Of a stretch of 64,000 nt of DNA, positions 58,613 through 61,285 are shown piece after piece. Both the position numbers and the translations under genes were made by a program. The notes below the pieces were generated by a model. That model saw only the letters and a program-made list of their open reading frames with translations. It was not told the origin of the DNA and searched no databases. This DNA is from Myxococcales bacterium (lineage in GTDB: Bacteria; Myxococcota; Myxococcia; Myxococcales; Myxococcaceae): positions 53,611 to 117,610 of the forward strand of contig JAYUUC010000375.1 of assembly GCA_043755105.1 (NCBI GenBank), in the 5' to 3' direction. Position 1 is the first letter of the stretch. Every line of letters starts with the position of its first letter.

Positions 58613-61285
58613 ATGAAGAACGTCGAGGTCGCCGCAGTCGCTGCCCTCAATGCACAGGGCGAGATGCTCTGGGGCAAGAGGAAGGACTGTGGCAAGTGGA
58701 CGACCCCGGCAGGCCACAAGGAGGAGGGCGAGACCGATGAGGACTGCGCCCGCCGCGAGCTGAAGGAGGAGGCCAACCTCGAGCCCAAGGACAAGATGGA
58801 CTACTTGGGGGTCGAGCACATCGTCAAGGAAGGCGAGGACCTTGCCATCCACTGCTTTAGCTGCGAGGTGACTGGCACGCCTTCCTCCGAGAATGACCCA
58901 GACGAAGAGGTCGAAGAGTGGCGCTGGGTGAATATCACCGACGGTCTGCCGAAAGAGATCGAGGATAACCTCTACGCGCCCAAGAACGTGCTCCTGCGTC
59001 TTCTCCGGCTCCAGGGGAAGGAAAAGGAGGAGCACATGAAGGTCACCGCCATCATGGCTGCTGCGATGCTGGGAATCGCCCCGAGCCCCACTGCGAAGTC
59101 CGAAGCCCAGGCCCACATCACCCAGGCGCCTCCGAAGGCCAAGGAGGCGGCTCCGGTCGAGGTGGCCTCGCACTGGTCGACGAAGGGGCTCGCCCCGGGC
59201 CTGCGCCAGATCGCCGTCCTTGAGTCCGGGTTCGGCGAGAACACCAACCACGCCGCCTCGCCCGACGGGGAGTTCGACACGGCTTACGGGCCCCTCGGGC
59301 TGAAGACCTCTTCGGCCTACGACCTCTACTCGAAGTACACCCACCTGCGCACGGCCTACCCTGGGCTGGACGACAAAGCCGACTTCGAGGCTCGCTTCAA
59401 GTCCGACTGGGGCTTCTACAACGCCATGGCCTCGGCCTTCTGGCGCGAGATGCACTGGCTGTTCAAGGACCACCGGGCGGTCTATGCCTGGCGCCACGGG
59501 CCTGGTGCTGCCTCGGTGGCTTCGGATGAGCAGGTGGCCGAGGACTCGTACACGCGCCGCTACTTCTCGATGCACAAGTCCGAGAAGGAGTGGCAGGAGC
59601 TGGAGGACAAGCTCCACGAGAAGCCTGTCATCCCCCTCAAGAAGGCCGAGGGCGACGACCCGATCATGAACCTGCTCCGGCACCCCCAGCGGGCTGAGCG
59701 GCTGCTGGCCCTGCGGCTGCCGGGCGTGACCGACAAACACCTCGAGCTGGCTGTCCAGGACTCGGACCCGGCCGTGGTCCAGGCAGCCCTGAAGCACCCA
59801 GCTGCTCGAGCGGCCACCATCCAGTCGGCCATCCGCACGGGCCGGTATGATGCCATCCAGGAGGCCCTGAACCACCCCAAGTTCGATGAGCGCCACCTGG
59901 ACTACCTGCTGCACTCCCCCTCGAAGCAGGTGATGGTCGCGGCGGCCAAGCACCCCACCATCACTCCGGACCAGACCGAGTACCTGCTCAACCACCCGGG
60001 CATCGACCCCGCGGTGAAGCGGGCGGCCATCTCCAACCAGTCCATCCTGCCTCACCAGCTCTACGACCTCGTCAACACGGCCATTGAGAGGCCCCACGAC
60101 GGCCAGGCGCAGGTCTTCGCCATGGACGCTCTGTCTCACCCCCGCTGCCCCTCAAAAGCGCGTGGTGCGGCCTACAACGACGGCAGAGCAGCCTTCGTGG
60201 ACGCCCTCAACACCCCGTCGGACCTGGTCAAGGCCATCAAGCCGGAACACCTCTCCAAGCTGGGTCGGGCGACTGCCACCCATGGCGCGTCCACCGTGGA
60301 TCACACCATCCACATCTCGGCCCACCCCGAGTCCATTCAGGCCGACGTGGACCACTACCACAATGACATCATGGGCGGCTCGACCATGGTGCAGCCGATG
60401 AAGCTGCCCAAGGATGAGGACGGGATCTCGCCCAAGACCATCGTCCAGGATGCGGACGGGCGCCGCTTCATGCTCAAGCCCTACCACGAGGTGGTGGCGA
60501 AGGTGACGAACACGTACGCCAAGGCCCCAATCCAGGGCTGGGCCGAGATGGCCAACCAGGGCCTGTACCATGCTGCTGGAATTGGCTACCTGCACCAGAA
60601 GGTCCACGTGTCCGAGCACAACATGGGGCCGGGCATGGAGCGCGAACCGTCGCTGGTCATCCACATGGCCCACAACGACGACGACACCGAGTGGATGACC
60701 TCCAACAAGGCGATGAAGCAGAACCTTCACCAGCACGACCAGGAGCACACCCGCTTCCAGGCCCGCCAGATTGGGCTGATGGACTTCCTGGCCAACAACC
60801 TGGACCGCCACCACAACAACCTGCTCTACGACGGGGGCTCGGGCAACCTGCTCTCGGTCGACAACTCGAGGTCCTTCCAGTACAACCGGCCCGGCCACCT
60901 GAAGTGGACCAAGGACGGGGCCTTCAAGAAGTCCTCGGACAACGACGTGGACGCGCTGGTCCACTACCTGTCCTCAGGGGTCTTGTCGGGCACCGGCATC
61001 CCCACGTGGGCAGGCTTCTCCAAGAACGCCTCGGTGTCCACGCCCGAGGCCCAGGAGGGCATGAACAAGGTGATGCAGTGGTGGCAGGACGCCTCGCCCA
61101 AGGTCAAGGAGGAGTTCGAGAGGCACTTGACGGCCATCAAGGACGAGCACCTCCGAGACCACCTGCGGCGCAACTTTCATGCCCGAGCGGAACACCTGGA
61201 CTACATGTCCAAGTTTCCGATGGAAGACCAGGGGGATGACTGGGACGTGACGGCCGTTCCGTTGTATCATCGGCCCAAGGTCTAA
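58613..61285 (+). CDS. 890-aa multidomain protein: Nudix hydrolase, lytic transglycosylase (SLT)-like domain, HEAT/LRV-like repeats, atypical kinase module
   Basis: Nudix box GHKEEGETDEDCARRELKEEANL. SLT-like LRQIAVLESGFGENTNHAA...AYGPLGLKTSSAYD. Repeats ...KHPAA.../...NHPKF.../...KHPTIT.../...NHPGIDPAVKRAA. Kinase FMLKP, LANNLDRHHNNLLY (DRH at 60803-60811) and LLSVDNSRSF. An internal ATG at 59036 has AAGGAGG 5 nt upstream and is followed by the hydrophobic MKVTAIMAAAMLGIAPSP. Confidence 0.8.
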   Translation: MKNVEVAAVAALNAQGEMLWGKRKDCGKWTTPAGHKEEGETDEDCARRELKEEANLEPKDKMDYLGVEHIVKEGEDLAIHCFSCEVTGTPSSENDPDEEVEEWRWVNITDGLPKEIEDNLYAPKNVLLRLLRLQGKEKEEHMKVTAIMAAAMLGIAPSPTAKSEAQAHITQAPPKAKEAAPVEVASHWSTKGLAPGLRQIAVLESGFGENTNHAASPDGEFDTAYGPLGLKTSSAYDLYSKYTHLRTAYPGLDDKADFEARFKSDWGFYNAMASAFWREMHWLFKDHRAVYAWRHGPGAASVASDEQVAEDSYTRRYFSMHKSEKEWQELEDKLHEKPVIPLKKAEGDDPIMNLLRHPQRAERLLALRLPGVTDKHLELAVQDSDPAVVQAALKHPAARAATIQSAIRTGRYDAIQEALNHPKFDERHLDYLLHSPSKQVMVAAAKHPTITPDQTEYLLNHPGIDPAVKRAAISNQSILPHQLYDLVNTAIERPHDGQAQVFAMDALSHPRCPSKARGAAYNDGRAAFVDALNTPSDLVKAIKPEHLSKLGRATATHGASTVDHTIHISAHPESIQADVDHYHNDIMGGSTMVQPMKLPKDEDGISPKTIVQDADGRRFMLKPYHEVVAKVTNTYAKAPIQGWAEMANQGLYHAAGIGYLHQKVHVSEHNMGPGMEREPSLVIHMAHNDDDTEWMTSNKAMKQNLHQHDQEHTRFQARQIGLMDFLANNLDRHHNNLLYDGGSGNLLSVDNSRSFQYNRPGHLKWTKDGAFKKSSDNDVDALVHYLSSGVLSGTGIPTWAGFSKNASVSTPEAQEGMNKVMQWWQDASPKVKEEFERHLTAIKDEHLRDHLRRNFHARAEHLDYMSKFPMEDQGDDWDVTAVPLYHRPKV

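Follow-up and report, generated by a model that had tools for sequence, protein, structure and literature searches.

The locus described here raises the question why a nucleotide-hydrolysing, a wall-cutting and a phosphorylating module should be joined in a single polypeptide, and whether this polypeptide is made in one form or in two. It lies in a stretch of 64,000 nucleotides (called the window in the following; positions 53,611 to 117,610 of contig JAYUUC010000375.1, assembly GCA_043755105.1, Myxococcales bacterium) and is an open reading frame (ORF) at 58613..61285 (+) which starts with ATG and codes for a product of 890 aa. The contig carrying this giant gene has 163,558 bp, and the base composition of the ORF (GC1/2/3 = 0.64/0.40/0.89) shows the same profile as the confident genes of the window. 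The protein has four modules with intact catalytic motifs, cassettes are shuffled among its relatives, and its gene has a fixed position in a head module. We suggest, with a probability of about 0.6, that the DNA belongs to an Mx1-like myovirus of Myxococcota of ~164 kb and that the giant gene codes for a polyvalent (multi-enzyme) effector. Homologs of the whole protein are P0002-P0007, the protein WNM70333.1 of Myxococcus phage Mx1 and a 1488-aa ORF of L003, a 168.9-kb IMG/VR viral genome; a further related locus is found on L002, a 112.6-kb metagenomic contig.

The N-terminal module is a Nudix hydrolase domain (aa 3-115; 58619..58957, +), which scores 78 bits against Pfam PF00293 (cut-off 21.1, E=9e-22), matches MutT/NUDIX in PHROG (5.8e-16) and finds Nudix structures in the PDB (1e-6). 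The Nudix box GHKEEGETDEDCARRELKEEANL, located by a regex match at aa 34-56 (nt 58712-58780), fits the pattern GX5EX7REUXEEXGU including the metal-binding Glu residues, with N replacing the second G. Predicted membership in the Nudix superfamily is unambiguous. The NCBIfam models for RppH (31 bits) and MutT (26 bits) stay below their cut-offs of 139 and 98, the PDB matches are scattered over NUDT1, NUDT15, NUDX1, an ADPr-ase and RppH, and searches of the protein against PHROGs and NCBIfam gained no names beyond Nudix.

The next enzymatic module (aa 188-321; 59174..59575, +) resembles lysozymes and lytic transglycosylases (LTs) and is called LT-like here. Its candidate catalytic residue is Glu204 (nt 59222-59224) in L-E-S-G-F. 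The strings IAVLESGFG and AYGPLGL are present (LES at aa 203-205, AYGPLGL at aa 224-230), and AWRHG is also found in this stretch. A HMMER search gave 232 LT-like homologs, counted as cluster representatives, 195 of them at E<=1e-10, and an alignment of 26 sequences of the domain shows invariant Glu-Ser, His, Gly, Gly, Lys, Trp and Gly. The AlphaFold2 (AF2) model has a pLDDT of 93.4, and in a Foldseek comparison with the PDB the top 23 matches are all family-1 lytic transglycosylases (E 0.06-0.9, TM 0.42-0.49, prob 0.6-0.99). The structural matches in the PDB include Slt of P. aeruginosa (Pa), Slt70, phiKZ gp144, MltE, Cj0843, Neisseria LtgA and MltD. From the viral structure library BFVD, LT_GEWL, SLT and endolysin matches were obtained (E 4e-4 to 1e-1) together with proteins described as 'lysozyme-like virion structural' and 'internal core'. 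The sequence LES-GF..AYGPLGLK..YAWRHG is collinear with QES-AF..GATGLMQL..AAYN of Pa Slt, the top PDB match; the Glu of the latter motif is E503, and the entries of the inactive E503Q form read QQS there.

Profile searches do not lead to the same family. Pfam gave no match of any kind on aa 142-344 even at E<=10 and none on the stand-alone homologs either, and NCBIfam and PDB sequence searches found no match for the domain, stand-alone homologs included. A profile of the LT-like domain run with hmmsearch against the PDB sequences returned no lytic transglycosylase and only GLE1 and FYV6 as noise, and hhalign against the PF01464 alignment, a thin template of only 3 SLT sequences, reached a probability of 0.4 with 7 columns aligned. 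Membership in Pfam SLT (PF01464) was rejected in view of the missing profile match, and the assignment was retained at the level of the fold alone. The best structural matches, the family-1 (GH23, SLT/goose-lysozyme-like) enzymes Slt70, Pa Slt, MltE and phiKZ gp144, share with the window domain the Glu-Ser at the end of a helix, a Gly-x-x-Gly-Leu turn and an aromatic-x-x-Gly motif. Nevertheless, identity is 16-21%, TM is ~0.45-0.49 and there is no match between hidden Markov models; moreover, the window family has an insert of ~10 residues between the ES and the G-L motif, unlike the family-1 enzymes, and an invariant His (NxxH) and Lys (GLK) occur in this family only. From the model and the motif we accept the domain as a predicted lysozyme-like, lytic-transglycosylase-like fold with a plausible catalytic Glu204, and by its sequence it belongs to a family for which there is no Pfam model.

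Separately, it was observed that L002, whose giant protein has no LT-like cassette, carries a canonical SLT gene (PF01464, 135 aa) a few kb downstream; this gene (20530-20937, -) and a Peptidase_M10 gene (17338-17886, +) may functionally substitute for the absent cassette.

Alpha-helical 'HP' repeats of the LRV/HEAT-like type follow (aa 347-545; 59651..60247, +), with xHPxx motifs at aa 357, 395, 421, 435, 447, 461 and 509. The models compared were PF01816, PF25591 and PF02985. On the window sequence itself Pfam gives HEAT at E=0.27 only, which is below significance. Homology links the region to repeat arrays of at least 20 relatives (E as low as 5e-19); some of these arrays score with LRV (9.8e-8), LRV_2 (5.8e-7) or HEAT (4e-8), and the window repeats align with the LRV-type repeats of P0040.

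The C-terminal module (aa 546-890; 60248..61282, +), named K2, is an atypical protein-kinase-like domain. Its catalytic set is complete, with K622 (MLKPYHE), E645 (GWAEM), D731-R-H-H-N-N736 including H733, and D750 (VDNS). Stand-alone K2 homologs number 21; the 22 sequences of the family share K, E, D, H and N (DRHxxN) without exception, and 90% of them retain the metal-binding Asp. The window module remains below threshold in Pfam, with 18.6 bits against 27.1 for PI3_PI4_kinase (PF00454) and 20.3 bits for Fam20C, whereas the K2-type module of relatives passes PF00454 (37.6 bits in L003; E=6.6e-12 for the best of 33 giant proteins that carry the LT-like domain). The AF2 model (pTM, the predicted TM score, 0.86) has mTOR, ATR, ATM, SMG1, PI3Kgamma and Fam20A/C as Foldseek neighbours at E 4e-5 to 2e-3, with TM of only 0.35-0.48. 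As modelled, K2 is an intact atypical protein-kinase-like domain with a bilobal fold, nearest to PI3K/PIKK/Fam20. The adjacent gene (61297..62652, +) codes for a second kinase of 451 aa, type K1 (PI3_PI4_kinase E=7.7e-6); it is a conserved partner gene and the ortholog of the Mx1 'kinase' WNM70334.1, to which it is 39% identical. At the C-terminus of P0006 a K1-type kinase is fused to the Nudix-repeat protein in place of K2. Since P0006 carries the K1 type where K2 otherwise ends the protein, both cassettes appear to be interchangeable.

A previous sequence-only reading of this ORF had named a complete Nudix box, an SLT-type transglycosylase, HEAT/LRV-like repeats and a kinase. The Nudix box and the kinase agree with the profile and structure data above, and the repeats were recovered through their homology to the LRV- and HEAT-scoring arrays of the relatives. 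The transglycosylase call holds at the level of fold and motif (AF2, Foldseek, Glu-Ser) and fails as membership in Pfam SLT.

The relatives of the protein point to the class to which it belongs. Among 50,697 phage records the sole relative is Myxococcus phage Mx1 (OR576727.2, 169.6 kb), a phage with a contractile tail (PMC10720576). Its homolog WNM70333.1 (1479 aa, annotated as 'NUDIX hydrolase') consists of GNAT, ART-PolyVal and NUDIX followed by the same hydrophobic leader and LT-like module; over Nudix, leader and LT-like module the two proteins are 36% identical in 349 aligned columns. The Mx1 protein thus carries GNAT and ART-PolyVal N-terminal to Nudix and has no C-terminal LRV repeats or K2, whereas the window protein opens with Nudix and ends with its own kinase. 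A pattern scan of IMG/VR with the window sequence alone gave nothing, and with a tighter sub-alignment it gave two loci. The six close homologs all start with Nudix and differ in the segment between Nudix and the repeats or kinase: in P0002 the LT-like cassette follows Nudix and repeats are absent, P0003 has a ParB-like cassette plus other sequence after Nudix, P0004 has nothing between Nudix and the repeats/kinase, and P0007 has a PBECR5 nuclease after Nudix. GNAT or pentapeptide cassettes are also swapped in among the relatives. The junction between Nudix and leader is unbroken in P0002, Mx1 and L003, by which a fusion artefact of sequencing or assembly was ruled out. Among the 33 giant carriers of the LT-like domain, 26 have Nudix, 11 GNAT, 9 a PI3/4-like kinase, 3 PBECR5 and one ART-PolyVal. 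The combination had been called unusual in the sequence-only reading. As predicted from the sequences it is unusual among proteins generally and recurrent within one class, and it is not unique, as 26/33 carriers contain Nudix and 9 the same type of kinase.

This class comprises the polyvalent proteins, which are described in the relevant passages of Iyer et al. (2017, PMC5512222) as multidomain effectors of phages and conjugative elements that are encoded among virion genes, are predicted to be packaged and injected with the DNA and frequently contain domains of the lysozyme, GNAT, ART and kinase types. Like these proteins, the window protein combines unrelated catalytic domains in one chain (Nudix, LT-like and kinase, where at least two disparate ones define the class), has homologs with variable cassettes and the hallmark domains ART-PolyVal, PBECR, GNAT and ParB, and is a phage gene beside virion genes, within a head module whose synteny extends to Mx1, L002 and L003. 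The repertoire given in these passages (GNAT, ART-PolyVal, PBECR, ParB, lysozyme, kinase and Nudix-linked domains) overlaps with that of the window relatives. There are also differences to the proteins described there (PMC5512222): the window kinase is PI3K/PIKK/Fam20-like with a full C-lobe region and not a truncated Ser/Thr/Tyr kinase or zeta-toxin kinase; the muralytic domain is of a family without a Pfam model and always has a hydrophobic leader; and a MuF, portal or MPTase domain is absent. In addition, Nudix domains of myoviruses are found in late clusters, often beside virion lysozymes, and are predicted to be packaged in the head (PMC9503650). On these sequence comparisons the 890-aa protein is a fresh example of the known polyvalent class. 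Less charted are the unmodelled lysozyme-like cassette with its built-in leader, the PI3K/Fam20-like kinase family and a conserved junction motif which is discussed below.

The window corresponds to that part of a large phage genome which is devoted to head morphogenesis. Upstream of the giant gene lie the genes for the large subunit of the terminase (29601-32801, +; 1066 aa, split by an intein with Hint at aa 187-268 and LAGLIDADG), the portal (33840-36035), a MuF-like/minor capsid protein of 239 aa directly after the portal (36039-36758) and the major capsid protein (MCP; 49985-51388). A pair of genes for 136 aa and 280 aa (57351..58603, +) always precedes the giant gene, with synteny in Mx1, L002 and L003. 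Sizes and order of the pair are equal in Mx1 and L002, and the 279-aa protein of L003 is 42% identical to the window 280-aa protein. The window, Mx1, L002 and L003 all have these genes in the order 136 aa, 280 aa, giant, kinase; in Mx1 both the genomic position and the neighbours of WNM70333.1 and WNM70334.1 ('kinase', 619 aa) match those in the window. Delivery of the kinase by the virion, as proposed in the sequence-only reading, would fit this position in the head module, the synteny and the polyvalent concept.

Some further observations concern the neighbouring genes. In the terminase intein the Hint module (aa 187-268) is followed by a LAGLIDADG_2 homing endonuclease (aa 308-485, E=2.7e-24), and the nuclease part of the terminase is found at aa 823-1000. 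Genes for thymidylate synthase (54253-55161) and an NT5C-type 5'-deoxynucleotidase (56715-57314), both (+), are interleaved with the capsid and effector genes; at this spot Mx1 has ThyA plus a dNMP kinase and L003 a ThyX-type (Thy1) gene. The gene for the 280-aa protein (57761-58603, +) matches phrog_772 'tail fiber protein' (2.5e-17) despite its location in the head module. A third kinase-bearing giant of 1280 aa is encoded in the head module (42313-46155, +); its C-terminal part is PI3_PI4-like (GNSDRHQGN...LIDHG, E=7.7e-5). Between this gene and the capsid gene lies a gene for a GGDEF (diguanylate-cyclase-type) protein (46159-47622, +, E=9e-13), and at the equivalent place (1-2580) L002 codes for a giant GGDEF protein of at least 1250 aa. 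The GGDEF genes suggest nucleotide-signalling effectors in the head module.

Between Nudix and the LT-like domain the protein has a Gly/Ala-rich hydrophobic helix (aa 142-165; 59036..59107, +), the N-terminal element of the LT-like module and similar to a signal anchor or a signal-anchor-release (SAR) leader. Nowhere is the protein more hydrophobic than in the MKVTAIMAAAMLGIA stretch (15-mer Kyte-Doolittle mean 1.78 at aa 142). In 45/45 internal copies a Gly/Ala-rich hydrophobic 13-mer is found after L-x-K-[G/S/N], 25-55 aa upstream of the LT-like domain, and in these 45 relatives the domain can be preceded by more than 1300 residues. The Mx1 equivalent, LSKSWKSAFAG, also sits internally. In proteins that begin with the LT-like module the leader is the N-terminus itself (M...LEKNWKxALAG...AQ), and small stand-alone copies of 144-171 aa open with classic hydrophobic leaders. 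Since the leader is conserved upstream of the LT-like domain in internal, N-terminal and stand-alone copies alike, we regard the helix as an integral part of the predicted muralytic cassette, resembling a signal anchor or SAR-type leader.

The same helix had given rise to the suggestion that two products are made, the full-length protein and a Nudix-less form of 749 aa whose N-terminus would serve as Sec signal peptide or membrane anchor. The sequence features behind this suggestion are real: AAGGAGG (59024-59030) is followed by agcac and the in-frame ATG 59036-59038 (M142), so that the candidate start spans 59024..59038 (+), the arithmetic of the 749-aa product is correct and the hydrophobic segment follows. 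This ATG is the sole one preceded by AAGGAGG among the 402 in-frame internal ATGs of 42 confident genes (GGAGG precedes 4), and the site is the strongest internal ribosome-binding candidate in the window, surpassing most of its genuine starts, which have GGAG(G) ~6-8 nt upstream. It falls exactly on a module boundary, MKVTAIMAAAMLGIAPSPTAKSEA shows the n-, h- and c-region layout of a signal peptide, although this layout is seen only if translation began at M142, and in P0002 the leader is preceded by MK as well. Against an internal start speaks its lack of conservation, as a Met within 12 aa upstream of the helix is found in 8/45 relatives and absent in 37/45; L003 has neither an in-frame start nor a Shine-Dalgarno (SD) sequence at the equivalent of M142, and in Mx1 the ATG is missing there and the sole in-frame candidate is a GTG, which GGGAG precedes by 7 nt. 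Furthermore, AAGGAGG is weak evidence for selection of a ribosome binding site, because K-E-E/A in preferred codons spells the motif automatically and the ORF contains it five times (58718, 58763, 59024, 59141 and 61106). A rough estimate with Met at 3% of residues, five AAGGAGG and two compatible spacings each makes one SD-ATG pair not improbable. No promoter-like site and no distinctive RNA structure (fold z=-1.3) accompany the start at 59036, and to export a chain of 725 aa ending in an ATP-dependent kinase would make little functional sense. The AAGGAGG-ATG is most simply a by-product of the codons of a Lys-Glu-Glu linker or a relic of cassette fusion. A second product from M142 is possible in this phage, is absent as a feature of the family and is unneeded to explain the helix, and we therefore hold the two-product model to be unlikely. 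Even less likely, in our view, is that the giant protein is not borne by the virion and acts in the producing cell, as an endolysin of SAR or signal-anchor type with Nudix and kinase working on nucleotide metabolism. SAR endolysins such as P1 Lyz and phage 21 R have a weakly hydrophobic Gly/Ala/Ser-rich helix directly N-terminal to the muralytic domain, which the window leader recalls; the stand-alone copies look like secreted or anchored muramidases, and the ThyA and NT5C genes of nucleotide metabolism lie just upstream of the giant gene. However, the helix of SAR endolysins is N-terminal and Sec-dependent, whereas in the window family it is usually located far within a giant chain; in most relatives hundreds to more than 1000 residues precede it, which is a misfit with Sec or SAR targeting. 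In addition, the giant gene sits among head genes in conserved synteny, and the partner domains ART-PolyVal, PBECR5 and GNAT are hallmarks of polyvalent effectors.

A different way to separate the modules would be proteolysis, with the polypeptide as an effector polyprotein that is cut at phi-x-K-[S/A]-E by a head-maturation or other protease into three parts, namely the Nudix enzyme on its own, the transglycosylase anchored by its helix, and the repeats together with the kinase. The window protein contains the motif as TAKSE (aa 160-164; 59090-59104), MHKSE (aa 320-324; 59570-59584) and LKKAE (aa 342-346; 59636-59650), the latter two at the module junction 59576..59650 (+). Cassette boundaries repeatedly show the consensus [P/G/Y]-[L/V/I/M]-x-K-[S/A]-E-[D/P/E]. 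The 150 LT-like carriers contain 262 copies of K[S/A]E where 104 would be expected (2.5-fold), an excess that the control tripeptides E[SA]K, K[SA]D, R[SA]E and KE[SA] do not show. Of the K[S/A]E copies, 63/150 lie no further than ~20 residues from the C-terminal boundary of the LT-like domain, a smaller peak is found just before the leader, and in the logo the -2 position is hydrophobic (65% L/V/I/M). Eight close family members have 28 copies of K[S/A/H]E where ~7 are expected, and in P0002-P0007 and Mx1 the motif is found behind Nudix as well as in front of the repeats and of the kinase. A cut before the leader would restore the N-termini of the stand-alone LT-like copies. The head proteases of T4 and phiKZ-type phages cleave after Glu. 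Moreover, P1 DarA and DdrB are processed before packaging, as stated in a passage of PMC5512222. For these two reasons a proteolytic signal is the most interesting reading of the motif, which may be a processing site. It is, however, unlike the known sites of T4 (L/I-x-E) and phiKZ (S/A/G-x-E), and the processing-related passages of PMC5512222 do not contain K[S/A]E. The window copy TAKSE falls after the leader and not before it, and the motif might instead be conserved as a linker or helix cap that was passed on along with the cassettes. No protease gene was recognised in the window, and the MCPs of the window, Mx1 and L002 have no common conserved K[S/A]E site; since both are lacking, processing stays a tentative idea, improbable on balance but more probable to us than an internal start. 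Two candidates for the protease were rejected: the N-terminal ~220 aa of the 1280-aa ORF looked protease-like by eye and have no Pfam or PDB sequence match, and the 239-aa gene after the portal is MuF/minor-capsid-like. The 1280-aa giant also has two junction-type motifs, LKAE and GKAE, at aa 222 and 322. Slightly less probable still than processing of the window protein itself is the more general proposal that the head-module giants are effector polyproteins in which phi-x-K-[S/A]-E at every cassette boundary is cut, likely after Glu, at head maturation or entry, so that one gene would deliver separate enzymes (in the window a Nudix hydrolase, a helix-bearing transglycosylase from a lysozyme-like family not described before, and a solenoid-kinase) and cassettes could be swapped by recombination at the shared motif.

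For the polyvalent effector which we prefer, the arrangement of the cassettes (Nudix pyrophosphohydrolase, helix with LT-like domain, LRV/HEAT-like alpha-solenoid as spacer, atypical kinase) suggests how it might work. The protein would be produced late, packaged in the head and expelled with the DNA, as is proposed for polyvalent proteins. Helix and LT-like domain would then act at the inner membrane and the peptidoglycan, much as T7 gp16 does with its LT domain and membrane segments. While phage genes are still silent, RNA caps or nucleotide signals of the host would be hydrolysed by the Nudix module, and K2 would phosphorylate host proteins before phage transcription, parallel to the defence-disarming kinase of T7. 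The phi-x-K-[S/A]-E junctions may be the cut sites that separate the modules. Several points weigh against this scheme. We infer packaging, ejection and the enzymatic activities alike, and the window protein has no fusion to MuF or portal, which is the usual packaging handle. The LT-like call is a fold likeness of weak statistics (best PDB E=0.056, TM ~0.48) plus a motif, and no sequence profile ties the domain to PF01464. A single helix in the middle of the chain does not allow a periplasmic transglycosylase together with a cytoplasmic kinase, except where the polypeptide is cleaved or partly translocated. No prohead protease was found in the window, and the capsid proteins show no conserved K[S/A]E site.

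To our knowledge, contractile-tailed phages are not known to need a trans-envelope channel of ejection proteins. A functional parallel for the LT-like cassette is T7 gp16, a large head-internal protein with an LT domain and membrane-inserting segments that is expelled before the DNA (PMC8954989), and the structural matches of the window domain include a PB1-like 'internal core protein'. Nevertheless, gp16 belongs to the ejectosome of a podovirus and has no Nudix or kinase, whereas the window phage is Mx1-like with a contractile tail (PMC10720576). In the case of the kinase the parallel is T7 gp0.7, a phage kinase that acts early on host proteins, as proposed for the window kinase; the T7 kinase broadly disarms defence systems (bioRxiv 10.1101/2024.12.20.629319). 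On the other hand, gp0.7 is expressed early and not delivered by the virion, and it has no detectable sequence relationship to the window kinase.

If the protein is delivered with the DNA, wall cutting, hydrolysis of nucleotides or caps and protein phosphorylation would take place in the host before any phage gene is expressed. The Nudix module could in this case hydrolyse, for example, ADP-ribose-derived or other defence signals, and the kinase would be a virion-borne counterpart of the early T7 kinase. Two modules that domain libraries miss or barely detect are now defined, namely the leader with the lysozyme-like cassette (232 cluster representatives) and the PI3K/Fam20-like kinase family, which exists stand-alone as well as fused. 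Finally, with the junction motif it becomes possible to test in Mx1, which can be cultivated, whether polyvalent proteins work intact or in pieces, a question of long standing.

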